Positions 19,685 through 34,126 are shown, counted from the first letter of the stretch. The stretch is DNA of 64,000 nt from an uncultured Verrucomicrobiae bacterium (GCA_963712025.1 CAVQGJ010000011.1:455929-519928); one strand, 5' to 3'. Notes: generated by a model not told the origin, from the sequence alone. Made by a program: numbers and translations.

Positions 19685-19743
19685 CACATTTTCACCTCTA
19701 CGATATGAGACACCACATTCCTTGTCAATGGCACAAGAAATCG

Positions 19744-19763
19744 GGTAGTGTCCTAATTTGAAA
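19744..19763 (+). repeat. left terminal inverted repeat GGTAGTGTCCTAATTTGAAA (flanked by TSD AGAAATCG at 19736-19743)
   Basis: Exact reverse complement of 32020-32039. The tip matches the IS1-family end consensus GGnnnTG. Confidence 0.85.
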
Positions 19764-20165
19764 ACTTCGCATAGCAGGGTCAATCAGGCCCATGGCAAGA
19801 AAAGGCCAACATTCCCCCATCCTGACCCCAGCCTTATTGACTGGAAGCGAATCGACAAGGGCATTCTGCATGAGGTGCGCGTCCTGCGAGCCAACGGCAT
19901 CGAGACGACGGAATCCTGTCAGGGCGGACACGGGCATCCGTTCCCGGAGCCTACGGTGCGATTCTGCGGTGGAGAAGCCGCCGGATGGTTTGCGCTTGGC
20001 ATCGCGATGCAAGAGCGCCTAGCGGTGAACGAGCTTCGGAGAATCTGGCGCATTATTGATGGCGTGCCCACTGGCCCGGAATGGGAAATAACATTCGATC
20101 ATCCCGGTGTCGGGCCATGCCCGGTGGATAGAGGAGACGGGAAAGCCACTTGGCGCTGGCGCTAA
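19758..20165 (+). CDS. hypothetical protein (up to 135 aa; start uncertain)
   Basis: ORF with a TTG start inside the left TIR and no early ATG. ..GIETTESCQGGHGHPFPEPTVRFCGGEAAGWF.. No recognised domain. Confidence 0.4.
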   Translation: MKTSHSRVNQAHGKKRPTFPHPDPSLIDWKRIDKGILHEVRVLRANGIETTESCQGGHGHPFPEPTVRFCGGEAAGWFALGIAMQERLAVNELRRIWRIIDGVPTGPEWEITFDHPGVGPCPVDRGDGKATWRWR

Positions 20166-20169
20166 AGCC

Positions 20170-20394
20170 CTACTTGCCTTTTCGGTCTAGCTCATTGCAA
20201 TCGTCACACAACGGTTTCCCGCCCGTACCCTTCCGTCGATTGTGCGGAGGTATCTCACTGCCCGGTCCGCATTTTGGGTTGTCGTGATGGTGTTTCTCTT
20301 TTACGGAATACCACGTATTTTTCCCGGCGTGCTTGGCGATGGAAAGCCCGCTTCCCAATCCTTTGGAGCGGTTGCCCGCTGGCTTGTTTTTCAT
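20170..20394 (-). CDS. small Cys/His-containing hypothetical protein (74 aa)
   Basis: MKNKPAGN..KHHHDNPKCGPGSEIPPHNRRKGTGGKPLCDDCNELDRKGK. Resembles a widespread family of small GTGGK..C..C proteins. Confidence 0.5.
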   Translation of the reverse strand: MKNKPAGNRSKGLGSGLSIAKHAGKNTWYSVKEKHHHDNPKCGPGSEIPPHNRRKGTGGKPLCDDCNELDRKGK

Positions 20395-20457
20395 GCGGGC
20401 TGTTATCGCGCCATGCGGACGCCTAGACAACCAGAAAAGCGAACACCCCGGCATCCA

Positions 20458-20721
20458 TCATTCCCTCTGGATGTTGACATTCGCTCCGCCATCGGAAGTG
20501 ACCACACAAATCAGCCTTCCGGTCTCCTCGCTCCTGTTGTTCTCCCATTGGACCGGACGTAAGCCTCTCCGGTCGATTTCCCATCCGAAGCCCGACTCGT
20601 GGTTTCCGTGCTCGCTGCGCACAATCCACGCGCCGCATTCGTCTTTACGCGCTTTGGCCGGGTCATGGCTTGCTACCGTATCGCCATTTCTCCACGCTTG
20701 CTCTATCAAATCCTCATCCAC
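20458..20721 (-). CDS. HNH-endonuclease-like small protein, catalytic core apparently deleted
   Basis: ..RKDECGAWIVRSEHGNHESGFGWEIDRRGLRPVQWENNRSEETGRLICVVTS. The family normally reads GWEIDH-about 15 aa-NLRPLQWENN. Confidence 0.55.
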   Translation of the reverse strand: MDEDLIEQAWRNGDTVASHDPAKARKDECGAWIVRSEHGNHESGFGWEIDRRGLRPVQWENNRSEETGRLICVVTSDGGANVNIQRE

Positions 20722-20904
20722 AGTAGCCTCCCGTGTGACACATGATTACTGGGTAGTCGAAACGCGAAGGCCCGGCCATCCAACCTGACCGGAAGCCAAG
20801 TCCGGGGGAAGGACAGCCGAGCCGTCGCAGTCAGAGCCTACGAGCCTTCCGAATTGCTGTCAACACCATCACGCAACTCAGCGGCTTGGGCTGGTAGCCG
20901 GATT

Positions 20905-21132
20905 TCATCGGCGGTTCTTCTTTCGCTTTGGAGCGGAAAAATCCCGAGCAGGCATCCACACCGCATCCATTTTCGGCTTCTTGTCCGGTGCCGACATACC
21001 GATGAGTCTCAGCGACCGGAAGGCAGCCTCCTTGTCGCGGAATGCGGCCAGCGGGCGATACTCGCCATCGTACAGGGCCGAAATCACGTACACTTTCTTC
21101 GTCGGTACGATTGGAATTAGTTGGTTGCTCAT
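20905..21132 (-). CDS. small hypothetical protein (75 aa)
   Basis: ATG 21132 lies 4 nt after the stop of the upstream TPR gene. MSNQLIPIVPTKKVYVISALYDGEYRPLAAFRDKEAAFRSL.. Confidence 0.5.
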   Translation of the reverse strand: MSNQLIPIVPTKKVYVISALYDGEYRPLAAFRDKEAAFRSLRLIGMSAPDKKPKMDAVWMPARDFSAPKRKKNRR

Positions 21133-21135
21133 GCT

Positions 21136-21741
21136 TCATCCTCCTTGGCCTTGGCGATGGTCTGTCGTCAATCCATTGCCAACACTGTCTCGCAACTCAG
21201 CGGCTTGTTGGCATGTCTCTGCTGATTCTCGGATTCGGCCAAGCCGAAACAGAATCTTGCCACGGTGGTTTATCACACGGGCCGCGTCCTTGCGCATTTC
21301 GGGATATGGATTTGCGCTCATCAATTCACGGTAGAGCCGGATGGATTCGTCCACCGTTTTCAATGCCTCATCGAACCGATTCAGTTGAAACAGCGCATCG
21401 GCTTTGGTCGATAACGCATAAGCGATGTCGATTCGGTACTGAGTAGCGCCCGCCTCGACCGCCTTCCGGTAATTGTTAATGGCGGCATCGTTGCTTGCCA
21501 CTGATTCTTCGTACTGCATAAGGCGAAACAGAACTTCGCCAGCATAGTATTGAGTCTGAGCCAAATCGGTTACGGATTCGACCCCACCATCTCGTGCGAG
21601 CCGCTCGAAAATTTCCGACGACTCATGGAATCGCTCAAGCGCCTCTTTGTAAGAATCCCCATCAATACACTTCAAGCCGTCACGGGCCGCCGCAACAGCG
21701 CCATCACGGATAGCTGCGTGGTCTTTGATAGTTTCAGCCAT
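21136..21741 (-). CDS. TPR-like helical repeat protein (201 aa), cassette A
   Basis: Paralog of 22786-23292 (shared ..VASNDAAI..AGxxxYxIxIAYALSTxADALxxLNRFxExL..). C-terminus CQQAAELRD. Confidence 0.6.
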   Translation of the reverse strand: MAETIKDHAAIRDGAVAAARDGLKCIDGDSYKEALERFHESSEIFERLARDGGVESVTDLAQTQYYAGEVLFRLMQYEESVASNDAAINNYRKAVEAGATQYRIDIAYALSTKADALFQLNRFDEALKTVDESIRLYRELMSANPYPEMRKDAARVINHRGKILFRLGRIRESAETCQQAAELRDSVGNGLTTDHRQGQGG

Positions 21742-21760
21742 GTTACATACCTCCTAGCAT

Positions 21761-22264
21761 CTAGCGGACAAAGGTGTGTCCTCCCCATCCGCGCCGGTGG
21801 CGTCGCCCAAATTCCGCCTCGGCCAGTTTGTCGCACCAATCTGTGCGGCCTGATTCAACCAGTGTGCGGATAGCTCGCGCTGCGTCGGAGTACGACTGCT
21901 CGGCGCTAACGCCACACGCCGCATTGGAGCGAGCGTCTATCAAGAATGCGATGGCCGCAGATTCGTCTGTGTCACGAGCGTTGTCCCATGTCTCGCGCCA
22001 TCCACCGTTTTTGACGCGCTCCCGACACGATGGACAAGCCCACACCCCTTCAATGCGATTAGCCTCGCGGATGTCGAGTCGGCCCGGGCAGAATTCACAG
22101 AATCGGAACGGTTGCTGTTCCAGCGCCTTCGCGCCAGCCGTGCCTAGACAGCACAAGCAAATGAATTCACTCCGACCAGCAACGGTCGGGTGTGTCTGCA
22201 TGTGATTCCATTGGCCCCGATAGAGACCGACCTTGCCGCAGAGTTGGCAGACCTGCGAACCCAT
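21761..22264 (-). CDS. Cys-rich (multi zinc-ribbon-like) hypothetical protein (167 aa), first gene of cassette A
   Basis: CQLCG..CLCC..CEFCPG..CPSC motifs. Directly preceded by structured leader copy A. Confidence 0.55.
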   Translation of the reverse strand: MGSQVCQLCGKVGLYRGQWNHMQTHPTVAGRSEFICLCCLGTAGAKALEQQPFRFCEFCPGRLDIREANRIEGVWACPSCRERVKNGGWRETWDNARDTDESAAIAFLIDARSNAACGVSAEQSYSDAARAIRTLVESGRTDWCDKLAEAEFGRRHRRGWGGHTFVR

Positions 22265-22284
22265 CTTGTCCCGTTTCCCTTCCT

Positions 22285-22466
22285 GCGATCAGGACAAACA
22301 GAAACCGCGCTCGGTCAGGAACGCGGTTCAATCTGCGTGGAGTTACTGTTCGGACGGTCATTCGCCGCCCGCACATCGACCGGAGCAACTTACTCTGGTC
22401 AAGCCACCGTGGGACTCCCGCCCCGGTTGGCAGATTCGGCTTTCACCGAATCGTTCCTGATGCTGG
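22285..22466 (-). ncRNA. candidate structured 5' leader RNA, copy A (ends in a terminator-like hairpin 22303-22328 plus a U-rich tract)
   Basis: About 85-90% identical to 24046-24257. Several hand-foldable hairpins. Promoter immediately upstream, RBS and ATG about 20 nt downstream. Confidence 0.55.
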
Positions 22467-22470
22467 CGCG

Positions 22471-22498
22471 ATTATACACCACGCCGTCGCTGAGTCAA
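22471..22498 (-). promoter_or_regulatory. sigma70-like promoter for leader A
   Basis: Minus strand TTGACT (22498-22493), 16-nt spacer, TATAAT (22476-22471). The conserved leader begins 5 nt downstream. Confidence 0.55.
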
Positions 22499-22505
22499 GC
22501 TCGGA

Positions 22506-22760
22506 TTAGAGCATCTCGACTTGATTGCTTCTTACACCATCCGCTTTTGGACTGGCAAACGGGTCTATGCGCGGCGGACAATCGAGGCGTTCAGTCTTGT
22601 TCAACAAGCCCTCGATGGTGAGAATCTGAACACGCGGATAGTCCTTGTCACTCCACAGTTTTGATGTGTAGCAGTTTGCCTCCACTGCTTCCAATTTCAT
22701 CTTCGACGTTGGCGGGTCGAGTGTGATGAGCACGCCCGCCTTGAACCCCTGATTGCCCAT
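22506..22760 (-). pseudogene. C-terminal fragment of a DNA methyltransferase
   Basis: ..KAGVLITLDPPTSKMKLEAVEANCYTSKLW..YPRVQILTIEGLLNKTERLDCPP. This is the typical C-terminus of N6/N4 methylases, and no upstream catalytic part is present. Confidence 0.55.
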
Positions 22761-23292
22761 GTCTGCCTCGCACGACTGACGAAACCTGGCGGATGGATTC
22801 CTCCACGACTGTCAACGATTCCTTGAATCGATTCAAGCGATACAAGGCATCGGCATTGGTGGACAGCGCGTAAGCAATGTGGATTTCGTACTCGCTCTGG
22901 CCTGCGTTGACCAATTCCTGCCACAACCGGATGGCCGCGTCGTTGCTGGCGACACATCCCTCGTACTTGGCGTTGTGGAAGAAGCCTTCGCCCGTGTCAT
23001 AGTGCGCCTCCGCCAAATCGCAGGCGAATTCGGCATGGCCGCGATTGACCAGCCGCTTGAATACTTTCAATCCCCTTCGGAAACACGCGAGCGCCTCTTT
23101 GTGGTGACGGTCATGGAGCAACTTCAACCCTTGCGTCATCACGTCTGCCGCGTCATTTCGCTCTTGTTCTGACACAATCTTGTCGGCCATCTGGTTAGCG
23201 AACGCCTCGAATTCGGCTTTCGTGGCACCGCCGCTAATGAATCCAAGCGGCACCATGTCCGGTGTTTGGATGAATGGGGGGTTAGGATTCAT
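22648..23292 (-). CDS. TPR-like protein, cassette B second gene, truncated and fused into the methylase remnant
   Basis: ATG 23292 (MNPNPPFIQ..). Paralogy to 21136-21741 stops after ..TVVEESIRQ (about 22786). The remaining ORF reads out of frame across the methylase fragment. Confidence 0.5.
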   Translation of the reverse strand: MNPNPPFIQTPDMVPLGFISGGATKAEFEAFANQMADKIVSEQERNDAADVMTQGLKLLHDRHHKEALACFRRGLKVFKRLVNRGHAEFACDLAEAHYDTGEGFFHNAKYEGCVASNDAAIRLWQELVNAGQSEYEIHIAYALSTNADALYRLNRFKESLTVVEESIRQVSSVVRGRHGQSGVQGGRAHHTRPANVEDEIGSSGGKLLHIKTVE

Positions 23293-24025
23293 GGTCGGTT
23301 GCGCCTCCACTCTTGACCTGAGCGTGCAATTCGGCGGCTCGCTGATAGCACGCGCTGGCCTCCGCTGCCCGATGCAGCCCCTTCAACGCATGGCCTTCGC
23401 ATCGCAGCGACCAGATGAGGACATTCTTGAATCGCTTTTCGTCGGTGGGGCCGCTTATCCCGTCCAGAGCTTCAACCGCGCCGTGAGCGCAAGTCACGGC
23501 TTCGTCAAATTGTCCACGGTTGCAAAAGATGATGCTTTTTTCCGCGAGTACCCATGCCGTCTCCTGTAGCGCGTCGGCCCGCAACGTGCCGCCAAGCAAC
23601 CGCTGGTAGACGGCCAGAGCCTCACCGAGTCTAGTCAGTGCATCGTCGAATTTTCCCGCCTTTCGGAGCGACTGGCCAATGGTAAAGAGCGTGATGCCGA
23701 ATTTCAACACCATGGGTTCACTCCATCGGTCAGACCAGTCGAGATACGCCGCGCCCACTTTGGCGAAAACGCCCAGTCCTTCGTCAAATTGGCGTGAGTG
23801 AACAAAATGCAGCGCATAGTCAAGCAGCGCGTCTACTCGTTCCGGCGGCAAATACGTAAGACCCCGATGCGCGGCAGCGCCGCCAATGATTTGGATGCCG
23901 CCGCCAATCATCTGGTCGGTGATGTCCTGAATCTCCACCTTGCTGCCGTCGGTCGTCGCCGGGTCATACTCGCCAAGGTCGGATAATCGCTTCGGTGCTT
24001 CTGACTGATTGCTGGTCCCACACAT
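23282..24025 (-). CDS. TPR-like helical repeat protein (247 aa), first gene of cassette B
   Basis: Helical repeats. The C-terminus CYQRAAELH resembles that of the other cassette proteins. Preceded by leader copy B. Confidence 0.6.
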   Translation of the reverse strand: MCGTSNQSEAPKRLSDLGEYDPATTDGSKVEIQDITDQMIGGGIQIIGGAAAHRGLTYLPPERVDALLDYALHFVHSRQFDEGLGVFAKVGAAYLDWSDRWSEPMVLKFGITLFTIGQSLRKAGKFDDALTRLGEALAVYQRLLGGTLRADALQETAWVLAEKSIIFCNRGQFDEAVTCAHGAVEALDGISGPTDEKRFKNVLIWSLRCEGHALKGLHRAAEASACYQRAAELHAQVKSGGATDHES

Positions 24026-24045
24026 GATGCACCCTGTCCTTTCTC

Positions 24046-24257
24046 GCGATCAGGACAAACAAAAACCGCGTTCGTCAGGAACGCGGTTCAAACTGCGGAG
24101 TATTTTGTTCGGGGATTCCAGTCCAGAGGGCTCTAATTGCCCAAGGAGGGAACCACTCCCGCACATCGACCGGAGCTACTCGCTCCGACCAAGCCACCGT
24201 GCGAACTCCCTCGCCGGTTGGCAGATTCGGCTTTCACCGAATCGTTCCTGATGCTGG
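24046..24257 (-). ncRNA. candidate structured 5' leader RNA, copy B (terminator-like hairpin 24064-24088 plus UUUUUGUUUGU)
   Basis: Same blocks as copy A with a 30-nt longer central hairpin. Compensatory substitutions occur in two stems. Confidence 0.55.
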
Positions 24258-24261
24258 ACAG

Positions 24262-24290
24262 AGAATATCAGGTAACAGATTCGATTGCAA
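24262..24290 (-). promoter_or_regulatory. sigma70-like promoter for leader B
   Basis: Minus strand TTGCAA (24290-24285), 17-nt spacer, TATTCT (24267-24262). Confidence 0.45.
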
Positions 24291-24296
24291 GCGAAT

Positions 24297-26691
24297 TTAG
24301 GCGGGCTGCTTTTCAGATGCTTCCCATCGCGCGCTGGACGCCTTGACCGATTCGTAGTTGGCATCAAGGCTCGGCTGTAAAAGCACAAGCGCAGCAATGC
24401 GACGGGCCATCGCCGTAACTTCTTGGACCTCCTCAACCCGCAACGAGCGGCCAAGCAGCGCATCTTCTCGGTAGCTAAGCCATTTCTTGATGACCTGATA
24501 GCCGCCGATGGTGTAATCCCATATCTGCCAACGCGCCGCGCAATCGCACCGGGAAGTAATAGGCGTCGTCGCGCAACGCATGGTCGTCGCCTAGCAACCG
24601 TGTAAAACAAAATGGCACGCCTTCAGGATTTGCCTTTCCTGTGCATCGTGTAAGCAAGAAACTGTTGCCGGGCCAACATTGCGCCCAAAGCGTAGGACGC
24701 GGTTCGTTCCAAAGCGGTCTGACCCCACTGTAATAGCAGTAGCGGGTATCGAAGGGGCGAACGAAGTATGCTCGCAAATGTGATGGCACGAACTTTTCGA
24801 CGGCAAGAATCTTATTTCTAGTCTTCCTAGCGTCAAATCGTGCCGCGTTCTCGACTAGACCACCTCCTGCTGCCGCAAGCGTTTCCCAAGTCACGTTAGG
24901 GTCACAATATCTTCTCATCCGCTGTTCAAGCGTCGCTTGGTCAGTGTCAATTAGTGTCCCGCCGCGTTTCTCCATCAGACCATTGGGCGGAGCCTGCGCG
25001 CATAATTCAGAAATCTTAGGCCACTTTGCATAGTGGTCGGCAACATTGCCCGGGACGGAACGAGAACCGATTGCTTTTCTTTGGTTCCGCTATGGCGAAT
25101 TTCTCCTCGAATTGCCAAGCACGACCAAAATATCGCCCTCATGTTTCACCTGATTGGCAGCGTCGTACTCCTGTTTCAATTCCGGCATGTTCATTTCCAG
25201 TTGTTGCAGCCGAGCCTTGCCCTCATTAGATGGCGGTTGCCAGCCGGTGAGTGAGTTCGTCAGATAAACACGGACGCGATCAGTCTCGGTGAGCGGGGCT
25301 TTCAGGTTTTGCAACAATAAGCCGATTTGAAGGTGAGAAACCACAAATGGTGCCGGTAAATCTCGAATCCAAACAGACGTTCAAGCGTTGCCTTTTTAAG
25401 CTCGTCTGGAACGGTGGCATCGCCACTATTCTCTTGGAGGGTCGCGTGAATCCTCCTGATGACTTCCAGCAAATAACCCGCCGTTCCACAACAGGGGTCA
25501 AGCACGTGGACGTGCTTGTTGGCGAATCCGTCCTCCAAATCAAGTTCTTCACGCAATATCTTGTCCACTCGCTCAACTTGGTAACGGATAATTTCTCGCG
25601 GGGTCAGCCAGACGCCAAGTTGCTTTCGTAATTCCGGGTCGAAGGCCTTTAGGAATGGCTCATAGAAGTATTGCACGGCCTGATGCTCGTCAAACCGAGC
25701 AAAGAAAGTGGTGCGCTCCACTCGGTTAAGTAGGTTTTCCGTCCACCCTAGGACTTCCGTAAGACCAAGAGGTTTCAATTTGGACGGCGAGGAAACCTGT
25801 TGAAACAACGCTTGGATAACGGGCAGCCTGAGATAATCGACGCACTCCCGCCAGCGAAAGTCATTTTTCCGGGTTGGATTTTCCTTGTGCCATAGAACCC
25901 ACCCGGAGAACACGCCATAGAAAAGCGTTTGCACAAGTGTCGAATGGAAAAAGTGTTGAGCTTCTTCATCCGAGAACTTCATACCCAGTCCTTCTTCCAA
26001 TGCTGTTCGCGTTGAGGCCAATGCTGGCAAATCGGCCTGCTGTTCGACATGGATGCGAGCATCGCGAGCGTAGGACGCGAGAAACCAAGCGACCATTTCT
26101 GGTTCAATTATCGTGGAGGAATTGAGCATCACCCGCTTCAAGTATTCTGCTATCAATTCCCCATGACGCTCTGCCGTCTTGCGAGCATGGTCAGTAGCTC
26201 TCCAAAAATCATCCTCGTTGGTTGCCAAGGAGTAGGTCTCCAGTTCTACTGGCTTTCCATTCGTGTCACGTCCAACCAAGAGAAAGCTCCAGAAATTTGT
26301 CACCAATACTTGACCGTATTTTCCCAAGTACCGTATGACCTGCTCGCCCTTCGCCACATCCCGCAGAGATTCTCCGGCGGGTTTGGCTTCGATTACTCCG
26401 CGGTCGGGGTCCAACTCAGCTAATGGAGGCACGGCTTGGTTTTGTTTGAGCAAAGATGTCGTGAATAATCCGAAGTCGGGAATTCCTTTGCCGTGGTTCT
26501 TCGGATGGTTGATGGAGGTGATCTTAGGTTTGAGTGTGTCGCCAATTGTATTCAGTAGATCGGAGAGAGCCGGGTATCCTGAAGTTTCGTCCGTACCTGC
26601 TCCACGAATTGACTGCACGCGGTTGAGATAGCGTTCTAGCGCCTCGGTAAACTTCGACGTAGTGGTTTTTTCAGGTTTCATCGTCATCATC
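24297..26691 (-). pseudogene. MmeI-like type IIG restriction-modification enzyme remnant (several frame breaks plus an internal deletion of the NPPY region)
   Basis: N-terminal PD..EAK nuclease-like motif (GIPDFGLF..RGVIEAKP). SAM motif I VLDPCCGTAGYL. ..GFEI|LPAPFVVSHLQIGLLLQNL.. ILVVLGN is followed directly by FEEKFAIAEPKKSNRFSFRP. Type-ISP-like C-terminal domain ..WDYTIGGYQVIKKWLSYRE. The pieces lie in ORFs 25302..26879, 25090..25344, 24475..24975 and 24297..24581. Confidence 0.65.
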
Positions 26692-26961
26692 ATCCCACGG
26701 GTCCGGGTAATACCCGGTGTCGTCAGCAATCGCCTTGCTGACACGTTCCGGTATCGAGCCATCCTTGCAAAACTGTCCGGCTTCCTCTGCGGTGACTGGA
26801 ATGGCATCGTTCCATTCACCGACTGTGCCCTTCCAGGGTTTCCACTCGCCGTTGTCGAAAGTGAGTATGCCCCCGCCATCCCTCATCGGCTCTGGGTCGA
26901 TTAACTGGCGAGCGCGGGTTATTGAATATCTGCCATATAGGTCATCGCCCATGCGAGTCAC
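26671..26961 (-). CDS. small hypothetical protein with acidic tail (96 aa)
   Basis: Its start overlaps the upstream gene's stop by 4 nt, and its own stop overlaps the start of the RM remnant. Ends ..YYPDPWDDDDDET. Confidence 0.5.
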   Translation of the reverse strand: MTRMGDDLYGRYSITRARQLIDPEPMRDGGGILTFDNGEWKPWKGTVGEWNDAIPVTAEEAGQFCKDGSIPERVSKAIADDTGYYPDPWDDDDDET

Positions 26962-28067
26962 GAAGCCTGCTTGTCCAACTGTTTCACCCGGTTCTTTAGC
27001 TCGACTTCACGCGCGGCCCATTCCTTGCCGAGCGCCGCGTGCTCCAAGCAGTCAAATAATTCTTCGCTGGTCAAACCACCGTTGCCTAGCAACTTGCCCA
27101 CCGCTTCCCGGTCGCGCTCGACAGCCAACTGCATTTGTTCGAGGTCTTTCACGCCCGCGAACGTCTGCTTGCGGATGGATAGCAGGGTGTCCTTCACCCG
27201 TTCCAACAGGTCGAGATTGCGCAGGAATTTCTCGACGACCAGATTCACCGCGTCCAGCCGGACCGCCAACGTCTTGCCATCTTTCTCGGCTTGCGCTCGT
27301 TCAATGACCATGCGACGCGCCAGCAAGTAGGCGATACGCAGTGGCTCGAAATTGTACCGGGCGCGATCAGTGATGGCCACGAAGCCGCGTTCCTCGAAAT
27401 ACCGTAGTGACCCGACCTCACTTTTGATGGCATCCTTCGCCGTCGCGTCGTCAAGTACGATGATTTGCTCGTCCGACTTTCGGTTGGCCTTCATTTCCAA
27501 CAATTGCGATAACACCGTGTCACCATCCGCGACCACGGCCCGCTTCGCAATCGTACCGAGAGCCATTCCGACTACCAATTTACTTTCGACAGCGATGATT
27601 CGCGGCGACGGCAAGCGAGGGTCGTTGACGGTCACGAGAATATCGCCGGTCTTATTCAGTTCATCCTCAGCCGTCGCGCCGGTAAGCGCCACGGTGTCAG
27701 CTAGTTTTTCGGCTCGAATGATGTCTTTGAGCACGTCGCTGTATTCGACTTCCGCCTCCGCGCCTTTGCGGGTCGTACCGGCCAGAATCTCGCGGTTCTT
27801 ATAGAGCAGTTTGAGGCTTTCGAGTTGCACACCAAGCTCGTCCTCAGTGCGGGCAAGGAACGCGCTTACCCGGTCCTCCATGAGCGCCAGTGACCCGATG
27901 CCGACGGCCTTCCGTACTGCATCGGCGCGGTCGTCGGCCTTGGTGTTGGACAGGTATTCAAACACCAACGGATGCGTGAGCGTGAGGTGGTCAACGACGA
28001 CGGACTTGCTCTCCGCGTCCATCGTGACCTTTTCCTTGTCCGGCACTTTCGCTGGTTGCTTGCTCAT
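26958..28067 (-). CDS. coiled-coil protein with PD-(D/E)xK-like nuclease motif (DUF2130/RmuC-like pattern)
   Basis: 369 aa. ..TRKGAEAEVEYSDVLKDII..TGDILVTVNDPRLPSPRIIAVESKLV.. (D..ExK spacing). Long helical N- and C-terminal regions. Confidence 0.55.
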   Translation of the reverse strand: MSKQPAKVPDKEKVTMDAESKSVVVDHLTLTHPLVFEYLSNTKADDRADAVRKAVGIGSLALMEDRVSAFLARTEDELGVQLESLKLLYKNREILAGTTRKGAEAEVEYSDVLKDIIRAEKLADTVALTGATAEDELNKTGDILVTVNDPRLPSPRIIAVESKLVVGMALGTIAKRAVVADGDTVLSQLLEMKANRKSDEQIIVLDDATAKDAIKSEVGSLRYFEERGFVAITDRARYNFEPLRIAYLLARRMVIERAQAEKDGKTLAVRLDAVNLVVEKFLRNLDLLERVKDTLLSIRKQTFAGVKDLEQMQLAVERDREAVGKLLGNGGLTSEELFDCLEHAALGKEWAAREVELKNRVKQLDKQAS

Positions 28068-28381
28068 TTGCGCCCTTCTTTCTCTTTGATCTCACTGACG
28101 ATGGCCGCTTGTACCGCCTTTTGCGGCGTGTCTATCGGCGGCACTCCCAACACGGCCACGTACTTCGTCTTTTCGTCCTGTGCGCCGTCCAGATGGCTCC
28201 ACGCATAACATCGCTTGGCCTTCGGATGGCCGACCAAATCGAACACTTCCACGATACCGCGCCATGCTGTCTTGCCCTGAAAGACTTCATGCACCGGCAC
28301 GGATTCGATGTGCTTGGAATCGCAGCCGTGCAGCTTGCCGATCACGGCCCGCAGTTCTTCGACGTATTCAGGATTCGCCAC
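28064..28381 (-). CDS. small conserved hypothetical protein (105 aa)
   Basis: MANPEYVEELRAVIGKLHGCDSKHIESVPVHEVFQGKTAWRGIVEVFDLVGHPKAKRCYAWSH.. Its start overlaps the transposase stop by 14 nt. Confidence 0.55.
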   Translation of the reverse strand: MANPEYVEELRAVIGKLHGCDSKHIESVPVHEVFQGKTAWRGIVEVFDLVGHPKAKRCYAWSHLDGAQDEKTKYVAVLGVPPIDTPQKAVQAAIVSEIKEKEGRK

Positions 28382-29198
28382 AGCGTTCTATCAGTTCCGC
28401 AACCGTCCACTGGCTGCTTTCCACGCCTGCCGCTTGTGCGGGAGTCATGCGAATAGCCCCATGCGATTTGCAGAAATTATAGTACGCAAAACTCAGCGCG
28501 ACCGCAGCCTTAAAATTCGGCAGCTTCTTGCTAAAGGCGTTGGTCAACCGGGTGAGGCGTCGGCAGTGCATCCGTAGAGTGTGATTCTGTTTCTCGACAT
28601 GCGAGGTTGTGATTCGGGCAACCAGTGGGTTGCCTTGGATAATTTTCCTTTCGACTTCCACGACCTCTGCCGGGCTGTACCGGCTCGCCGCTTCCTTCGT
28701 GAGATTCGTGACGGAGTAGGTTTTTACAATTTGCCCATAATCGACTTCGCTGCCGAACCCGTAATCGACAGCTTCGGGATAAGTACCAAGAGCGTCTGAC
28801 GAAAGCTGGACGCGATTCGCCAGCCGTCCAGCCAAATCATCCATGAATCGCCGTGCAAAATACCGGTCGCGCTGGCCCACGACAAAGGCAGGAATCAATT
28901 TAGTATCGCAGTCCAAGGCAATCCATGTCCAAACATCGCCATACACGCGCGCCCGTGCCGCGTTCTTTCGCTTGGCTCCAATGAAGCCCCAAATTTCATC
29001 AACTTCGACGTTGCGGCATGGCAGGTTGACCATTTTCGCATCCATGATGGCCTCACAGGCAGTGCCAACGCGGAGGCCTAGCCTCATAATCGTATCCCTG
29101 TGGATGCCCGTCATCCGCTCAATGGAGCGGATGGAATTGCCTTCGGCCAAAGCGCCGATCACCACCGCCTGTTTGTCTGGTTTCAAGTTGTTTGCCAT
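28368..29198 (-). CDS. IS1-family transposase (single-ORF type)
   Basis: 276 aa. N-terminal HTH (EGNSIRSIERMTGIHRDTI). DDE region VEVDEIWGFIGAKRKN..VWTWIALD..LSSDALGTY..TSHVEKQNHTLRMHCRRLTRLTNAFSKK..YYNFCKSH. Confidence 0.8.
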   Translation of the reverse strand: MANNLKPDKQAVVIGALAEGNSIRSIERMTGIHRDTIMRLGLRVGTACEAIMDAKMVNLPCRNVEVDEIWGFIGAKRKNAARARVYGDVWTWIALDCDTKLIPAFVVGQRDRYFARRFMDDLAGRLANRVQLSSDALGTYPEAVDYGFGSEVDYGQIVKTYSVTNLTKEAASRYSPAEVVEVERKIIQGNPLVARITTSHVEKQNHTLRMHCRRLTRLTNAFSKKLPNFKAAVALSFAYYNFCKSHGAIRMTPAQAAGVESSQWTVAELIERCGES

Positions 29199-29226
29199 AT
29201 CGCACCTCTATTCTTTATGGGATTTA

Positions 29227-29272
29227 GTGTACTACAGAAAGTAATGAAGTCAACAACTATTTTGTAGTACAC
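29227..29272. promoter_or_regulatory. operator-like palindrome between the divergent transposase and RHH genes
   Basis: GTGTACTACA (29227-29236) and TGTAGTACAC (29263-29272), a perfect 10-bp inverted repeat with a 26-nt spacer. The core GTAGT resembles the element TIR tip. Confidence 0.45.
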
Positions 29273-29290
29273 AAACTTTTCTTTTGTGCT

Positions 29291-29473
29291 ATGCTTCCTT
29301 CCATGAGCAAACGCATGGGACGGCCCAAGCTGCCCAAGGACGAAGCCCGCAGCATCGTCTTCCAGATTCGTATTTCGCCAAAGGAGCAACGGCGCTTCAA
29401 GGCAGCGGCCCGCAAGGCTGGCAAAGAACCGACCGAATGGGCCAGAAACGCCTTGCTTTCTGTGGCCCTTTAG
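29291..29473 (+). CDS. small ribbon-helix-helix-like DNA-binding protein
   Basis: MLPSMSKRMGRPKLPKDEARSIVFQIRISPKEQRRFKAAARKAGKEPTEWARNALLSVAL. The beta-strand then two-helix pattern is typical of the CopG/Arc type. Confidence 0.5.
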   Translation: MLPSMSKRMGRPKLPKDEARSIVFQIRISPKEQRRFKAAARKAGKEPTEWARNALLSVAL

Positions 29474-29484
29474 CGTATAGAGAT

Positions 29485-29578
29485 TGGCGGAAGCTGAGGG
29501 AGTCGAACCCCCATCGCTGGTCAGAGCGAGACCATTGGGGTGTAAAGTCCAGTTGCGCACCGGCGCGGGTCAGCTTCC
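29485..29578 (-). tRNA. selC-like (tRNA-Sec / allo-tRNA-like) gene with a non-canonical anticodon arm; possibly a pseudo-tRNA
   Basis: GGAAGCUGACCCGCGCCGGUGCGCAACUGGACUUUACACCCCAAUGGUCUCGCUCUGACCAGCGAUGGGGGUUCGACUCCCUCAGCUUCCGCCA. It has an 8-9 bp acceptor stem, a T arm with UUCGACU, a D stem with the 4-nt loop CGGU, a long variable hairpin and an encoded CCA. Confidence 0.5.
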
Positions 29579-29913
29579 AAAAGTGATAGCCTACGCGGGC
29601 CGTGCACAAGATCAGTGGAAGCTGAGTGTGCGCGGCCCGCCCTTTTGTATCCTCGCGCTTGTCCCGGACCGGCCATGCCAGGGGGCGCTCGCGACTAATA
29701 CTTGGTGCATCATGGCGATTTCCTTTCACACGCGCACCATATCGAATCGTGCCTGACCACGTAAGAGACCGGATGGAAAGCGGCCCGTGGCGTTCACGGG
29801 ACACGCTGCCGAGCGGGGGAAGTCTCAGGGGGGACAAGAAGGGGGTGCCTTGGTGTCCCCAAGGGGCTACTGAGGGGGTGCCTTGATGACCCTGCGGGAA
29901 AGCGGACGCGAGA

Positions 29914-30501
29914 CTACTGCGGCGGCCCGCGTTGGAGAAACCTCAGTCCAATCCGATGGCAAAGTTTCTTCGTGCGTCCAATATCACCAACAATGCTCTT
30001 TTGAAGTTTGGAACACAGCCACTCGTGGACTTGTGGAATGCTCCGCAGAGCATTGACCTCGGTTTGGTGTTGCAGGAGTATCTGGTAGATCACCAGAGCC
30101 GTTGTCGCCGCTTTTGGAAGGCGCTCAGGATGCCGGTCATATTTCTGGAAGCATTTAATGCCGTGAAGGAATCCCCGGATGAAGTCCTCGCTTTCTTCCA
30201 GAGTCGAATTCGTGAGCGTGAGCCGTACCGTCGTACCGATAATCACCAGCGTTGACTGGCATTTATCCACCACCAGCTTCGCCTGTTTTGGCGATAGCTT
30301 TTTCATTCCGAGACTGCGACGGTCACGAATGCGGGCGAATTGCGCGAACTGGTATCCCTGCATGGCCCCTTGCCGGAACTTGGTTGATGGTTTTGGGCCG
30401 AGTGGAACGTACATCCGAAAGATGAGATTCGTGACGTTGCCCACCCAAAGCGGCTCCTTGGGGTCCGGCCAAGTGGCGTTCGTTTCGCGTTCCGGTGTCA
30501 A
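29914..30501 (-). CDS. hypothetical protein (up to 195 aa)
   Basis: ORF only. A possible internal start is MKKLSPKQAKL. No recognised domain. Confidence 0.4.
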   Translation of the reverse strand: MTPERETNATWPDPKEPLWVGNVTNLIFRMYVPLGPKPSTKFRQGAMQGYQFAQFARIRDRRSLGMKKLSPKQAKLVVDKCQSTLVIIGTTVRLTLTNSTLEESEDFIRGFLHGIKCFQKYDRHPERLPKAATTALVIYQILLQHQTEVNALRSIPQVHEWLCSKLQKSIVGDIGRTKKLCHRIGLRFLQRGPPQ

Positions 30502-30615
30502 CGCGAGTCACGTTACTACTTCGGTCGCAGGAAAGGCAATTGCACTCTTGCGGTCAGAGTTTGCGCGTGACTACATCACCGGGAGTTGATATAAGCACGA
30601 CGTGGCAGGAATTCC

Positions 30616-31062
30616 ATGAAAGCTGAAATCTTTACCCTTTGCGATGCAGCAACAGCAGATGCGACAACGGGCAAGTTAAACATTCTCGGGAGTTTCGACC
30701 GATTTTGGTTTCCTCAGATGCCCGCAATGACACCGTTCTTTGCCTTGGCAGCCAAAATCCGATTCACGCAGAGCGAGGAAGGAAACAAGAAAATTCGGAT
30801 TCTGTTTATGGATACTGACGGAAAACCGGTAATACCTAAGCTTGAGGTCGTGGCACCAGTTCGTTTTGCACCAAACGATACGACTGCCACTTTGCAGTTT
30901 GCGATGATACTTCCACCGCTAAAACTAGCGAGTTTTGGGGACTACTCGATTGAGTTATCTGTAGACCAGACGGAATTGGCGACGTGCCAGTTGTCTGTGC
31001 GACAATCTCCCCCGTCGCCCCTGTCACCGCAACAATTCCAACCGCCGCCGCCGCCTTCATAA
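30616..31062 (+). CDS. hypothetical protein (148 aa) with Pro-rich tail
   Basis: MKAEIFTLCDAATADATTGKLNILGSFDRFWFP.. ATG preceded by GGAA. Lower GC than the core genome. Confidence 0.5.
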   Translation: MKAEIFTLCDAATADATTGKLNILGSFDRFWFPQMPAMTPFFALAAKIRFTQSEEGNKKIRILFMDTDGKPVIPKLEVVAPVRFAPNDTTATLQFAMILPPLKLASFGDYSIELSVDQTELATCQLSVRQSPPSPLSPQQFQPPPPPS

Positions 31063-31324
31063 GAAAACCCCTCGTGCTATACCAGCCAACGAATCTCCGT
31101 GGATACGGTATAGCCGCGCATGTCTGATTGTCAACCAGTTTGATGCAGACTGGCATTTGAGAAATCTCGTGTACCACCAGAATGGTCGCGCCAATGACCA
31201 GAAGAAGGAGCGGGACCCAAAGCTGTCCGCTTCTGTCAGCGAGCATCATGACCGGAGCCGTTACAGCCGCCCAAGCCAGCGAAAAACGCCAGACGAACCG
31301 ATTATTGCTTTTGAGAATACTCAT
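30836..31324 (-). CDS. putative small membrane protein; 3' end uncertain (the ORF runs antisense into 30616..31062)
   Basis: N-terminal about 85 aa have two hydrophobic helices (FSLAWAAVTAPVMML, LWVPLLLLVIGATILVV). The remainder is probably not translated as such. Confidence 0.3.
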   Translation of the reverse strand: MSILKSNNRFVWRFSLAWAAVTAPVMMLADRSGQLWVPLLLLVIGATILVVHEISQMPVCIKLVDNQTCAAIPYPRRFVGWYSTRGFLMKAAAAVGIVAVTGATGEIVAQTTGTSPIPSGLQITQSSSPQNSLVLAVEVSSQTAKWQSYRLVQNELVPRPQA

Positions 31325-31574
31325 TTTTCAAGTCCCTATATACCTTCAGCACTATTCTAGCCACAATTGCAGTAAATACAAGCGCGTCCGTGATGGCGGA
31401 AATGCTCACCAAATACTCGATTAGCAATATGACGTGTGACGGTTCATCATACCGCATCGCCAGTTTCTCAATGAGAGCAAGACCAACTGCGAACACAAGC
31501 AGGCACAGGCAGAGAATGAATAGTTCAAACGAGTCCCTGATGGTCTGCTTTGTCCCTGCCGAGAGAATCTCCAC
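31302..31574 (-). CDS. small membrane protein (90 aa), AT-rich
   Basis: Hydrophobic helices (LFILCLCLLVFAVGLALI; SISAITDALVFTAIVARIVL). Overlaps the next ORF's start by 23 nt. Confidence 0.4.
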   Translation of the reverse strand: MEILSAGTKQTIRDSFELFILCLCLLVFAVGLALIEKLAMRYDEPSHVILLIEYLVSISAITDALVFTAIVARIVLKVYRDLKNEYSQKQ

Positions 31575-31675
31575 ACGGTTTGTTGTACCGCAAGGTCATC
31601 ATTTACGGAAGCCAAATCAGACGCGGCCCGTTTCCCGTTGACGCGATTCACGCACTGGTGCGATGATGCCGCACC

Positions 31676-31981
31676 ATGAATCCACCGCTCCCGTCCAGAT
31701 TAGGCAAGACATCGCACCGGAAGAACATTCATGGCCACCCGATGGTCTATACTGTGATTGACGAGGATGTATTTATCGCTGCGACAAATCCGAAGAAGGC
31801 GTTTGCGATTCATAAACTGAAATCTACTGATGGCCGAGAGAATTTTCGCATCGGTTACTATATGATTGCTGAACGTCCACGAGTGAAGGGGAAGTGGGCA
31901 TGGGGTCAATTTGCGCCAACAATGTCCAAGGAAGAAATGATAGCTATTTTTGACCGAGCCAAGGCAAAGGGCTGGATTTGA
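31676..31981 (+). CDS. small hypothetical protein (up to 101 aa)
   Basis: ..MVYTVIDEDVFIAATNPKKAFAIHKL..FRIGYYMIAERPRVKGKWAWGQFAP.. Last ORF before the right TIR. Confidence 0.45.
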   Translation: MNPPLPSRLGKTSHRKNIHGHPMVYTVIDEDVFIAATNPKKAFAIHKLKSTDGRENFRIGYYMIAERPRVKGKWAWGQFAPTMSKEEMIAIFDRAKAKGWI

Positions 31982-32019
31982 GGCGAAAGTAGCCCAACCA
32001 CTCACGTCAAGAGCCGGAA

Positions 32020-32039
32020 TTTCAAATTAGGACACTACC
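32020..32039 (-). repeat. right terminal inverted repeat (flanked by TSD AGAAATCG at 32040-32047)
   Basis: TTTCAAATTAGGACACTACC on the plus strand is the reverse complement of 19744-19763. Confidence 0.85.
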
Positions 32040-32110
32040 AGAAATCGGCGGATTTGCGTAATGCACACGGCAACAGCCCTGTAGTGCCGCCAGCAGAGGA
32101 CCATCGGCGC

Positions 32111-34126
32111 TTACCAATGCCCGGCCTGATGGCGAATCGAGAATTCCTGGTAGTGGGTCTTGGGGAGTTCGGCGATGAATCGGGACGGACGCTGGAACCC
32201 GCCCGTGTCGCCGCCGGTCACGCGAAAGACCGGATACGAGAGATACAGTTCGTCCTTTGCCCGCGTCACGGCGACGTAAAACAACCGACGTTCTTCCTCC
32301 TCGCCTTCCAAATTGTCGAGCGACCGCGCGAGCGGGAACATGCCGTCGCAGAGCCCGATCACGAACACGGCGCGCCACTCCTGACCTTTCGCCTGGTGGA
32401 CGGTGCTGAGCCGCACGAACTCCTGTTCGTTCGACGCCCGCAATGACGCGTCCTCGGCTTCCAGGTTCGTCAGCAATGCGAGTTGGCTGAGGAAATCGTC
32501 GATGGTCTCGAACTGCATCGCGAACGCGGCCAGTTGATGCAAATCTTCCTCACGCGACCGCGCATTTGGAAATTTCACCTTCAGATAGCTGGCGTAGAAC
32601 CCCTCGATCACCTGCTCGATCATCTCCGCCGCGCGTCTGGGCTCCACCTGGCGCAATTGATTCAACACCTGCGCCGCCTTCTTCCAGTCATCGACCGCCT
32701 TTTTCGGGATCGCCTCGCTCGTGAGCAGCAACGGTTTGCCCTCGGCCAGGACCGGATGGAACTTCGCCCAGAGTTTCTCGGCGGTTTTCGCGCCGATGCC
32801 GGTCAGCAGTTTCAGGATGCGCTTGAACGCCATCTCATCGTGCGGGTTGACGGCGATTTTCAGGAAGCAACTGACATCCTTGACGTGCGCCTGCTCGAAG
32901 AACCGCAGTCCGCTGGTGATGACGTACGGGATGTTGCGCCGCGTCAGTTCCATCTGCAATTCCATCGCGTGATAATGCGCACGGTACAGCACGGCCACGT
33001 CGTTGAGCGGCACGCCTTCGTCCCGCAACTCCAGAATGCGCTGGGCGACGAAGGCCGACTGCTGGTTGCTGTCGGGGCACGGGATGAGCCACGGTTTGGC
33101 GCCGCCGGAGCGCACGGCCATCAGGTTCTTGGCGAACTGGCGGATGTTGCCCTTGATGGCGTCGTTGGCGAGCGCGAGGATGCCGGGGACGCTGCGGTAG
33201 TTGACCTCGATCTTGAACGTGCGCGCGCTCGGGTACCGCTGCGGGAACCCGAGGATGTTGCGATAGTTCGCCCCGCGCCACGAATAAATCGATTGCGCGT
33301 CGTCGCCGACGACCATCAGGTTGCGATGCACCATCGCGATGGAGTCGATCAACTCCGCCTGGATCTTGTTGGTGTCCTGATACTCGTCGACCAACACGTG
33401 CAAGAACTGTTCGCGATAGTGCGCGGCGACCTCGCCGTACTCCTGAAACAGCCGCAGCGTGTTGACCAGCAGATCGTCGTAGTCCATTGCGTTGGCCTTG
33501 AGCTTGCGTTCGCGGTACACCTCGCGCAACGTCTTGATCGGCCCAGCCAAATGCGAGAAATAGTCGTATTGTTCGGCCAACACCTGTTCGACGGTGCGCT
33601 CCGTGTTCACCGCCAGCGAGTAAATCTCCGCCAACACGTCGCCTTTCGGAAACCGCTCCTGCTTGGTGTCAATCCCCGCTTCCGTCACGCACGCATCGAG
33701 CATGTCCTTCGCGTCCTCGCGGTCGAGGATGGTGAAATCGTTGCCGAAACCGAGCAGCTTCGCGTGTCGGCGCAGGATCCGATTGCCGATGTGATGGAAT
33801 GTCCCGCCCCAAATCGAGGAGATATCCGTCGGAAGCAGATTCTCAACGCGCCGCAACATCTCCTTGGCGGCCTTGTTGGTAAACGTCAAGAGCAGGATCC
33901 GTCCCGGCGGGACCCCGTGCTCGACCAACCACGCCACGCGATACGTAAGCGTGCGCGTCTTGCCGCTGCCCGCGCCCGCAATGACCAGCATCGGCCCGGA
34001 ATTCGCCGTGTCGTCCGCGCCCGTAGCCGTCACCGCGGCATACTGCTGGTCGTTGAGTTCCGCGCGATAGTCGATGTGCAGGTCCCGCGCCCCGTGCGCG
34101 GGCTGCAAAATGTACTCGGGGGCCAT
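32111..34126 (-). CDS. uvrD: ATP-dependent DNA helicase, UvrD/PcrA/Rep family
   Basis: 671 aa. Walker A AGAGSGKTRTL, motif II VLVDEYQDTN, motifs ..VGDDAQSIYSWRGA.., ..LSTVHQAKGQEW.., ..RRLFYVAVTRAK. Confidence 0.85.
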   Translation of the reverse strand: MAPEYILQPAHGARDLHIDYRAELNDQQYAAVTATGADDTANSGPMLVIAGAGSGKTRTLTYRVAWLVEHGVPPGRILLLTFTNKAAKEMLRRVENLLPTDISSIWGGTFHHIGNRILRRHAKLLGFGNDFTILDREDAKDMLDACVTEAGIDTKQERFPKGDVLAEIYSLAVNTERTVEQVLAEQYDYFSHLAGPIKTLREVYRERKLKANAMDYDDLLVNTLRLFQEYGEVAAHYREQFLHVLVDEYQDTNKIQAELIDSIAMVHRNLMVVGDDAQSIYSWRGANYRNILGFPQRYPSARTFKIEVNYRSVPGILALANDAIKGNIRQFAKNLMAVRSGGAKPWLIPCPDSNQQSAFVAQRILELRDEGVPLNDVAVLYRAHYHAMELQMELTRRNIPYVITSGLRFFEQAHVKDVSCFLKIAVNPHDEMAFKRILKLLTGIGAKTAEKLWAKFHPVLAEGKPLLLTSEAIPKKAVDDWKKAAQVLNQLRQVEPRRAAEMIEQVIEGFYASYLKVKFPNARSREEDLHQLAAFAMQFETIDDFLSQLALLTNLEAEDASLRASNEQEFVRLSTVHQAKGQEWRAVFVIGLCDGMFPLARSLDNLEGEEEERRLFYVAVTRAKDELYLSYPVFRVTGGDTGGFQRPSRFIAELPKTHYQEFSIRHQAGHW

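Follow-up and report, generated by a model that had tools for sequence, protein, structure and literature searches.

Within a 64,000-nucleotide stretch from an uncultured Verrucomicrobiae bacterium (GCA_963712025.1 CAVQGJ010000011.1:455929-519928; hereafter the window), the genes uvrD and gspE are parted by 12.3 kb of DNA that holds a gene for an IS1-family transposase. Textbooks present IS1 as the minimal insertion sequence (IS), which raises the question of whether all of this DNA is one transposon or came to lie between the two genes in another way. Our results indicate that it is very probably a single unit transposon of 12,296 bp (a transporter IS), belonging to a widespread IS1 clade with a single open reading frame (ORF) for the transposase, and inserted by DDE transposition in the uvrD-gspE spacer of a Verrucomicrobia-like chromosome.

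The evidence starts at the borders. A 20-mer forms a perfect terminal inverted repeat (TIR), and the outer side of each TIR abuts the same 8-mer, as expected for a target site duplication (TSD). The element proper occupies window positions 19744-32039 and is delimited as follows:

19736-19743, no strand: left copy of the TSD, AGAAATCG, 8 bp, the duplication length seen throughout the family
19744-19763, plus strand: TIR GGTAGTGTCCTAATTTGAAA, the end distal to the transposase; the same 20-mer is the element end in at least 119 contigs
32020-32039, minus strand: TIR at the transposase-proximal end, exact reverse complement of the other
32040-32047, no strand: right copy of the TSD, AGAAATCG, identical to the left copy

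A third GGTAGTGTCCTAATTTGAAA site is absent from the 64-kb window at up to 3 mismatches. In shuffled sequence 0.01 matches to the 20-mer are expected and none of 100 shuffles gave two, which rules out a chance repeat. Finding an identical 8-mer at a fixed position by chance has a probability of 4^-8 (about 1.5e-5). A duplication of 9 bp (AGAAATCGG) is formally possible, but this reading was ruled out because every other copy of the family has ends that begin with GG and a duplication of 8 bp.

On the left, gspE (T2SSE/GspE ATPase) occupies 17957 to about 19684, and on the right uvrD (UvrD helicase) occupies 32111-34126, both on the minus strand, which places the insertion point between the 3' end of uvrD and the gspE promoter. 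When the element and one duplicate are removed, about 122 nt separate the uvrD stop (32111) from the gspE start (19684). The original prediction, made from the window alone, had proposed perfect 20-bp TIRs, an 8-bp TSD and a restored spacer of about 120 nt; these claims hold at the base level, the duplication length moreover recurring in more than 55 other copies. It had also placed the element between uvrD and gspE, which is correct except that the arrangement is gspE on the left and uvrD on the right, both on the minus strand. A promoter-like site for gspE (TTGACA-17-TATCGT, 19728-19700, minus strand) starts 7 nt from the duplication and is conserved in relatives without the element. The element may have cut the secretion operon off from signals upstream of it, or may itself be a source of read-out transcription.

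Relatives of the host show what the locus looks like when it is empty. Through GspE homologs we found three contigs (L124-126, GspE 95% identical) in which uvrD is followed by 128 nt and then by gspE. The window without 19744-32047 aligns collinearly with these spacers, and the target CGATTTCT (gene orientation) stands opposite AGATTCCT in the alignment. As the 128-nt spacer of the relatives runs without interruption and aligns with the reconstructed site, the 12,296 bp are an insertion. The exact 24-mer of the reconstructed site gave 0 matches in JGI metagenome contigs; the empty site was seen solely through the homologs, and none of these relatives carries the same 12.3 kb without TIR or TSD, an outcome that the original prediction had named as counter-evidence. 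The most similar GspE (98%) is found in another contig (L127:430-2772), where the gene upstream of gspE encodes a 780-aa protein without Pfam match instead of uvrD; the locus is therefore rearranged among close relatives.

The composition of the DNA had been suggested as a further check, and the element stands apart on both measures applied. Its GC content is 54.9% against 60.8% for the remaining window, in which every other 12.3-kb segment lies between 60.0 and 62.4%. The tetranucleotide distance to the host background is 0.292 for the element and reaches at most 0.129 elsewhere. All sub-blocks, cargo included, have a GC fraction of 0.52-0.58. The whole element is compositionally foreign.

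The ends are not specific to this locus. In an exact-match scan (one genome per species) the contigs with the 20-mer belong to Acidobacteriota, Verrucomicrobiota, Planctomycetota, Chloroflexota, Nitrospirota, Proteobacteria and others, at least seven phyla altogether. In these loci the 20-mer forms inverted pairs, the larger of which enclose a homolog of the transposase. Exact 8-bp duplications were seen at about 35 of the 45 pairs, with agreement in 7 of 8 positions at several others; a second, less size-biased sample of 80 metagenome loci (up to 10 kb on either side of the transposase) yields exact 8-bp duplications in 28 of 37 pairs. In total, more than 55 bounded copies with exact duplications were found. 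The duplications have on average about 50% GC against about 56% for the loci overall, a mild AT preference. One sub-clade uses a variant end, GGTAGTGGGGTC. Cultured bacteria carry such elements too: plasmids of Mesorhizobium loti and Acidiphilium multivorum harbour 44%-identical transposases within elements of 3,370 bp and 2,634 bp, respectively, with GGTAGTG tips and 8-bp duplications, which NCBI labels merely as 'IS1 family transposase'. A generic repeat unrelated to mobility, the concern behind the proposed search for the 20-mer, is ruled out by these paired, inverted and duplication-flanked copies and by the transposase genes inside the larger pairs: the 20-mer is common, yet solely as the end of this transposon family.

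The 20-nt end is exact across at least seven phyla while the transposases share only 38-72% identity with that of the window. Such conservation, judged from the sequences, points to strong constraint, wide horizontal spread, or both. Very small derivatives were observed as well. Three of them, 33-39 bp in length, are no more than two overlapping TIRs (L084:1409-1447, L109:4269-4301 and L001:97-129), and exact 8-bp duplications flank those in L084 (CAAAATCA) and L109 (GTAACTTT). Miniatures of 81 and 128 bp are also present (L116:4351-4431 and L131:20581-20708). The 33-39-bp derivatives with their duplications suggest that the ends (17-20 bp) suffice in cis. A different arrangement is seen at L075:1684-3652, with one left end and two right ends 1.17 kb apart: the 8 bp GCCGCTTT precede the left end and also follow both right ends. 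A tandem or nested arrangement might explain this, as might a right end duplicated together with its flank.

The enzyme that would act on these ends is encoded within the element:

28368-29198, minus strand: single-ORF IS1-family DDE transposase, 276 aa, apparently intact (Pfam, NCBIfam and alignment)

The gene lies 2,841 bp from the right end and 8,624 bp from the left end, as predicted (2.8 and 8.6 kb). It matches the Pfam family DDE_Tnp_IS1 (PF03400) with 39.2 bits against a cut-off of 24.1. BLASTP against InsB of Escherichia coli IS1A (E = 3e-6) aligns the first catalytic block, EVDEIWGFIGAK against EMDEQWGYVGAK, and the blocks DE(Q/I)WG(Y/F)(V/I)GAK and T..(I/V)E(R/K).N are common to both proteins. 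An alignment with 14 diverse homologs found by tblastn, with the identities given above, shows D135 and E202 to be invariant and D67 to be conserved wherever the region is present; these three residues are the candidate catalytic triad. The N-terminus has a helix-turn-helix signature, with neither CxxC pairs nor zinc-finger cysteines, and the gene is read without a frameshift. More than 8,000 homologs exist, mostly 275 aa long and many named 'IS1 family transposase' by their source; the few with an organism name come from metagenome-assembled genomes of Verrucomicrobia.

The tip GGTAGTG at both ends fits the IS1-family consensus GGnnnTG, the tips of IS1A being GGTAATG and GGTGATG. With its DDE domain, GGnnnTG tip and 8-bp duplication the element conforms to the IS1 family, whereas its single ORF, its lack of a zinc finger and its 12.3 kb set it apart from the classical IS1 group. 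The proposed fit to IS1 ends and to duplications of 8-9 bp is thus upheld, and the Pfam domain, the similarity to InsB and the fitting ends leave no sign of a transposase from an incompatible family. Family searches revealed no second transposase, integrase or recombinase among the ORFs of the element. End-like sequences are likewise absent, inside the element at up to 7 mismatches in 20 and in the rest of the window at up to 5 in 20. One TIR pair, one transposase and one target duplication are what characterise a unit transposon or transporter IS; a compound, Tn9-like structure does not agree with one transposase gene and no internal ends.

How far the element departs from its relatives can be judged from their anatomy. 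Three genes are conserved in autonomous copies (those for the transposase, a protein whose gene we call ORF105 and a ribbon-helix-helix protein of about 62 aa), and one or more variable passengers accompany them. Among acidobacterial copies a frequent passenger is a membrane-anchored protein of about 290 aa, encoded on the opposite strand. Complete copies usually measure 2.2-3.4 kb. Outliers are L213 (4,329 bp), L185 (5,589 bp) and L120 (6,486 bp, the same as L136), next to L133 with at least 6.3 kb, where the contig ends before the distal end. The copy in the window is the largest seen, about twice the next largest and 4-5 times the typical size. Between the transposase stop and the distal end there are normally 320-650 bp, against the 8,624 bp in the window. 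The original prediction of an unusually large cargo-carrying IS1 derivative therefore stands as regards size but needs to be qualified: passengers are the rule in this clade, and since typical copies already carry them at 2.2-3.4 kb, the novelty in size is one of degree.

The extra DNA is mainly found downstream of the conserved partner of the transposase:

28064-28381, minus strand: ORF105, conserved 105-aa partner gene, overlapping the transposase stop codon

ORF105 is situated beside the transposase in 39 loci and has 632 homologs, none of them annotated. Its structural model (predicted local distance difference test, pLDDT, 92) consists of a helix, four strands and a helix, and has no neighbour in the PDB (best E = 0.13).

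Two relatives show that this is a recurrent place for cargo. L120 has a 95% identical transposase, ends GGTAGTGTCCTAATTTGGGA and a duplication of its own, CGGCATTT. It shares with the window a core of 3.6 kb at 82.7% identity (window 31682-28091), but about 27 nt short of the ORF105 end the two cease to be alike, and other genes follow beyond; about 300 nt beside the transposase-proximal end differ as well. L133 occupies another genomic site, and its transposase is 87% identical. Directly after its ORF105 stands a small ORF with about 80% DNA identity to window 26671-26952, followed by an MmeI-type IIG gene (L133:11848-13806; MmeI_N, MmeI_hel and MmeI_Mtase) in the place taken in the window by a type IIG gene that is different and decayed. 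The comparison therefore reveals a recurrent cargo position behind ORF105, with the cargo of the window being partly common to a relative elsewhere.

Downstream of ORF105 the window cargo consists of the following features, listed from the transposase towards the distal end:

26958-28067, minus strand: candidate PD-(D/E)xK-like nuclease, 369 aa; its start overlaps the ORF105 stop
26671-26952, minus strand: small ORF, 93 aa, also part of the L133 cargo; its stop overlaps the type IIG ATG; no Pfam match
24475-26681, minus strand: decayed type IIG restriction-modification gene, N-terminal 40% intact
24057-24261, minus strand: leader 2, with a SAM-I/IV-like aptamer (24123-24259), a terminator (24063-24089) and repeats D2, D3, D5 and D8
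23282-24025, minus strand: tetratricopeptide repeat (TPR) protein, 247 aa, downstream of leader 2 (TPR_12, 1.3e-10)
22648-23310, minus strand: TPR protein, 220 aa, paralog of the 201-aa TPR protein (repeat D1)
22296-22498, minus strand: leader 1, with promoter-like site TTGACT-16-TATAAT, a SAM-I/IV-like aptamer (22334-22468) and a terminator (22302-22329)
21761-22264, minus strand: Cys-rich ORF, 167 aa, downstream of leader 1; no family match
21136-21741, minus strand: TPR protein, 201 aa (TPR_12, 1.6e-11), similar to the TPR/DUF3856 gene beside nuclease homologs
20170-21139, minus strand: two short putative ORFs (20170-20454 and 20831-21139) without family matches
19758-20165, plus strand: ORF reading inward from the end, at most 135 aa, true start uncertain (ORF call); no Pfam, NCBIfam or PHROG match and no homolog in related elements

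The predicted number of about 20 passenger ORFs is an over-count: some 14-16 are plausible, and of these two or more are pieces of a single dead gene. The minus-strand genes for the transposase, ORF105, the 369-aa protein, the 93-aa protein and the type IIG enzyme abut or overlap start-to-stop, a layout that suggests co-transcription. The 369-aa family is rare (131 homolog clusters) and has invariant D142, E161 and K163. Its AlphaFold model (pLDDT 87) is closest to restriction endonucleases of the PD-(D/E)xK fold, with MspJI as the best PDB match, although weakly so (prob 0.90, E = 0.012), and with PaqCI, SwaI, the SPARDA nuclease and HamA as further weak structural neighbours. The closest homolog (66% identity) and two neighbours, a TPR/DUF3856-like gene and a PDDEXK_4-RAMA gene, form a conserved group of three (L216:83-2506; L217; L218:642-3671), and the TPR gene of L216 is homologous to the 201-aa TPR gene of the window (E = 4e-13). 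The combination of nuclease and TPR genes, as present in the window, may represent an undescribed defence-type module.

The type IIG ORF covers positions 2-404 of the 1096 in the REase_MTase_IIG profile. Three-frame translation reveals a frameshift and deletion at methyltransferase motif IV (..ILVVLGNSRR*), the break being joined directly to a remnant of Type_ISP_C (positions 17-152 of 342). The C-terminal third of the 220-aa TPR protein appears scrambled, and this protein may be truncated. The ORF at 22506-22760 was considered as a C-terminal methyltransferase fragment; no family search supports this and we do not claim it.

Both leaders are about 200 nt long and 74% identical, with three pairs of the closing stem co-varying between the copies. 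Leader 1 has the order of a strong promoter-like site, aptamer, terminator hairpin, U-run and start codon. Scores against the Rfam family SAM-I/IV (SAM, S-adenosylmethionine; RF01725) are 38.5 bits for leader 1 and 33.1 bits for leader 2, under the gathering score of 41.1, and the genes downstream, a Cys-rich ORF and a TPR gene, are not those of SAM metabolism. At gathering thresholds Rfam finds nothing in the whole window. The two structured leader RNAs of the original prediction have a riboswitch-like layout but are sub-threshold matches to the Rfam family. Going by this layout, the leaders could be a variant riboswitch whose regulon or ligand is unusual.

On the other side of the transposase, between 29199 and 32019, lies an upstream module that is largely common to the window and L120:

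29224-29275, no strand: imperfect palindrome, putative operator (inverted repeat I12, arms 29224-29239 and 29260-29275)
29291-29473, plus strand: ribbon-helix-helix-like protein, 60 aa (ORF cluster C4, about 62 aa in most copies)
29485-29578, minus strand: non-canonical tRNA-like RNA with a G-CCA end, present only in the window, L120:9621-9714 and L133:9616-9710
29914-30501, minus strand: ORF with 85% aa identity to L120 and 49% to L133
30616-31062, plus strand: DUF6941 protein, 148 aa (E = 3e-30), conserved in L120
31676-31981, plus strand: 101-aa ORF in the variable stretch by the transposase-proximal end, where the L120 DNA differs

The palindrome lies between the transposase and the divergent small gene and overlaps the promoter-like site of the transposase (TTGACT-16-TACACT). 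The small proteins of about 62 aa share a GRPKLPKG motif and match ribbon-helix-helix families weakly (the 60-aa protein of the window is NikA-like at E = 1.2e-4, short of the cut-off; the L015 homolog matches DUF6290 with 28 bits against a cut-off of 27). Their gene is usually situated between ORF105 and the distal end, and has been placed elsewhere in the lineage of the window.

The tRNA-like RNA lies upstream of the transposase and adjoins the 3' end of the ribbon-helix-helix gene. Its acceptor stem is 7 bp long; besides a D stem and a long variable arm it forms a T arm whose loop reads UUCGACU, and its G-CCA tail is encoded. The anticodon arm is degenerate, with the loop CUUUACA. The RNA is conserved among the three largest related elements (that of the window, L120 and L133), with two compensatory pairs in the acceptor and D stems, and is absent from relatives of 3.3-3.5 kb. 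It does not qualify as a tRNA: Rfam tRNA-Sec gives 35.5 against a gathering score of 47, and ARAGORN reports it at a relaxed threshold only, with an aberrant anticodon loop. With default settings ARAGORN detects no standard tRNA gene in the window. The tRNA-like gene that had been proposed thus has the stems and the G-CCA tail but not the score of a tRNA.

With these features at hand, the other ways in which the locus might have arisen can be weighed. A genomic island brought in by a site-specific recombinase or by homologous recombination, with coincidental repeats, would agree with the lower GC and the defence-type gene content, both of which are typical of islands. Yet no integrase or recombinase is encoded and no tRNA gene marks a border; for the integrase type this is decisive, as the window is without a tRNA gene and the ORFs are without a recombinase. 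Moreover, the borders of the foreign DNA match to the base the ends that delimit more than 55 other copies flanked by 8-bp duplications, and the chance expectation of the repeat is that of the shuffles. We regard an island as extremely improbable. Growth in place has somewhat more in its favour: an ordinary copy of about 3 kb could have made the 8-bp duplication and then have expanded, so that the 12.3-kb unit as such never transposed. The size of typical copies fits this course of events, and so do the internal duplication of cargo (the leaders and the TPR paralogs), the pseudogene, the differing GC of the sub-blocks and the lack of a known second copy of 12.3 kb. It is nevertheless improbable, as the element contains no other transposase, integrase or end-like sequence to explain later insertions and every sub-block is foreign to this chromosome, while L120 and L133 elsewhere hold different or partly common cargo at the same ORF105 junction. 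The TIRs and both copies of the duplication are also still perfect, which argues for a recent event.

A third course concerns where the cargo came from and does not contradict a unit transposon. In a previous host the distal end may have been lost or ignored, and a solo end or miniature several kb away used in its place, with the chromosomal DNA in between being captured as in a pseudo-compound element. Miniatures and solo ends are indeed abundant, often near autonomous copies, and many loci have a single end; in L131 the 128-bp miniature lies 8.6 kb from a full copy. The displacement of the ribbon-helix-helix gene from its usual place between ORF105 and the distal end would be explained as well. 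On the other hand, no remnant of an internal distal end is left, the cargo is mostly defence-like or orphan instead of consisting of ordinary chromosomal genes, and the abutting and overlapping genes from transposase to type IIG look like an insertion into a slot that is more organised than a random chunk. Such an origin is rather unlikely, though less so than growth in place.

A single unit transposon remains the explanation that we favour, and its insertion would have proceeded along the following lines. The 276-aa transposase, with its N-terminal helix-turn-helix and the triad D67/D135/E202, would bind both 20-bp TIRs and join them to target DNA whose strands are cut 8 bp apart; repair of this stagger would yield the AGAAATCG duplication. 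The DNA between the ends would be carried passively. The divergent ribbon-helix-helix protein probably represses the transposase promoter at the palindrome, and ORF105, whose translation is coupled to that of the transposase, probably serves in an accessory or regulatory role. DNA would have gathered chiefly in the slot behind ORF105 and less at the other end, enlarging a unit of 2.2-3.4 kb to 12.3 kb.

Several points weigh against this explanation. The transposase scores 66.3 bits with the NCBIfam IS1 equivalog NF033558, under the cut-off of 100 bits, and we therefore consider it to represent a distant clade of the IS1 family. The function of ORF105 is unassigned, as the gene has no Pfam, NCBIfam, PHROG or convincing PADLOC match. 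The type IIG pseudogene and the possibly truncated TPR paralog point to residence time or decay, and the sub-block GC spread (0.52-0.58) is compatible with stepwise assembly. No second copy of 12.3 kb or of the cargo junctions was found, exact look-ups of two proteins of the window, the transposase and GspE, gave no match, and the literature search brought up no transposition assay for any member of the clade. With no second copy seen, one-piece movement of the full 12.3 kb is an inference, and so is present activity of the element.

A wider proposal may be added with considerable caution. The clade might constitute previously unrecognised small unit transposons with a dedicated ORF105 cargo slot in which restriction and nuclease modules are swapped, thereby acting as a defence-gene shuttle across soil and peat phyla, the largest copies having regulatory RNAs of their own (the tRNA-like RNA and riboswitch-like leaders driving TPR genes). 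We consider this possible but doubtful. Behind ORF105 the window has a candidate PD-(D/E)xK nuclease together with a type IIG gene, L133 an MmeI-type IIG gene, and L120 yet other genes.

What can be learned from the locus is that a distant single-ORF branch of IS1 routinely carries passengers and can reach 12.3 kb, the size of a unit transposon, on a mere pair of 20-bp ends and a transposition module of about 1.3 kb. Its perfect ends, perfect duplication and empty site in relatives make it a clean and testable case. The conserved end, the 8-bp duplications and the derivatives down to 33 bp provide a handle for annotating an element that is common in soil and peat metagenomes, and also for tracking the transfer of restriction-type genes and the gain of cargo by a small IS. 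Transporter ISs (tIS; PMC9330008) of the IS1 family and cargo-rich transposons are already known and no principle is overturned. New are the size, the restriction-type cargo slot and the conserved three-gene core of a widespread, mostly unnamed clade; a literature search found no paper that links IS1-family transposases with restriction or defence cargo. As passengers are normal in the clade and large transposons are common in other families, the finding is less surprising than the original prediction held.

Classical IS1 is 768 bp long, has no passengers and makes duplications of 8-9 bp; its transposase is encoded by two ORFs, InsA (with a zinc finger) and InsB, joined by a -1 frameshift. The element in the window resembles IS1A of E. 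coli K-12 in its Pfam DDE family, conserved blocks, tips and duplication length, but differs from classical IS1 by its single 276-aa ORF, two conserved extra genes and 12.3 kb. Also comparable are the single-ORF and ISMhu11 groups of ISfinder, the latter reportedly having one ORF, a size of 0.9-4.6 kb and passengers according to the tables of Siguier and co-workers. By that description the single ORF and the passengers inside the TIRs are shared, whereas the window copy exceeds the upper size about 2.7-fold and its clade has a three-gene core and a 20-bp end that is exact across many phyla.

In Tn9 a complete IS1 is present at each end of the cargo. The window element is similar in that an IS1-family transposase moves several kb of genes unrelated to transposition and leaves an 8-9-bp duplication; it differs by having one transposase, two 20-bp ends and no internal ends, which makes it a unit instead of a compound transposon. 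Cargo-rich unit transposons with defence genes have been described among Tn7-like elements (PMC8649781). As in these and in the Tn3 family, a TIR-bounded transposition module is combined with variable restriction-modification or nuclease cargo. The transposase is of a different family with different biochemistry, however; neither a resolvase nor TnsABCD is present, the duplication is 8 bp instead of 5 bp, and the module measures only about 1.3 kb.

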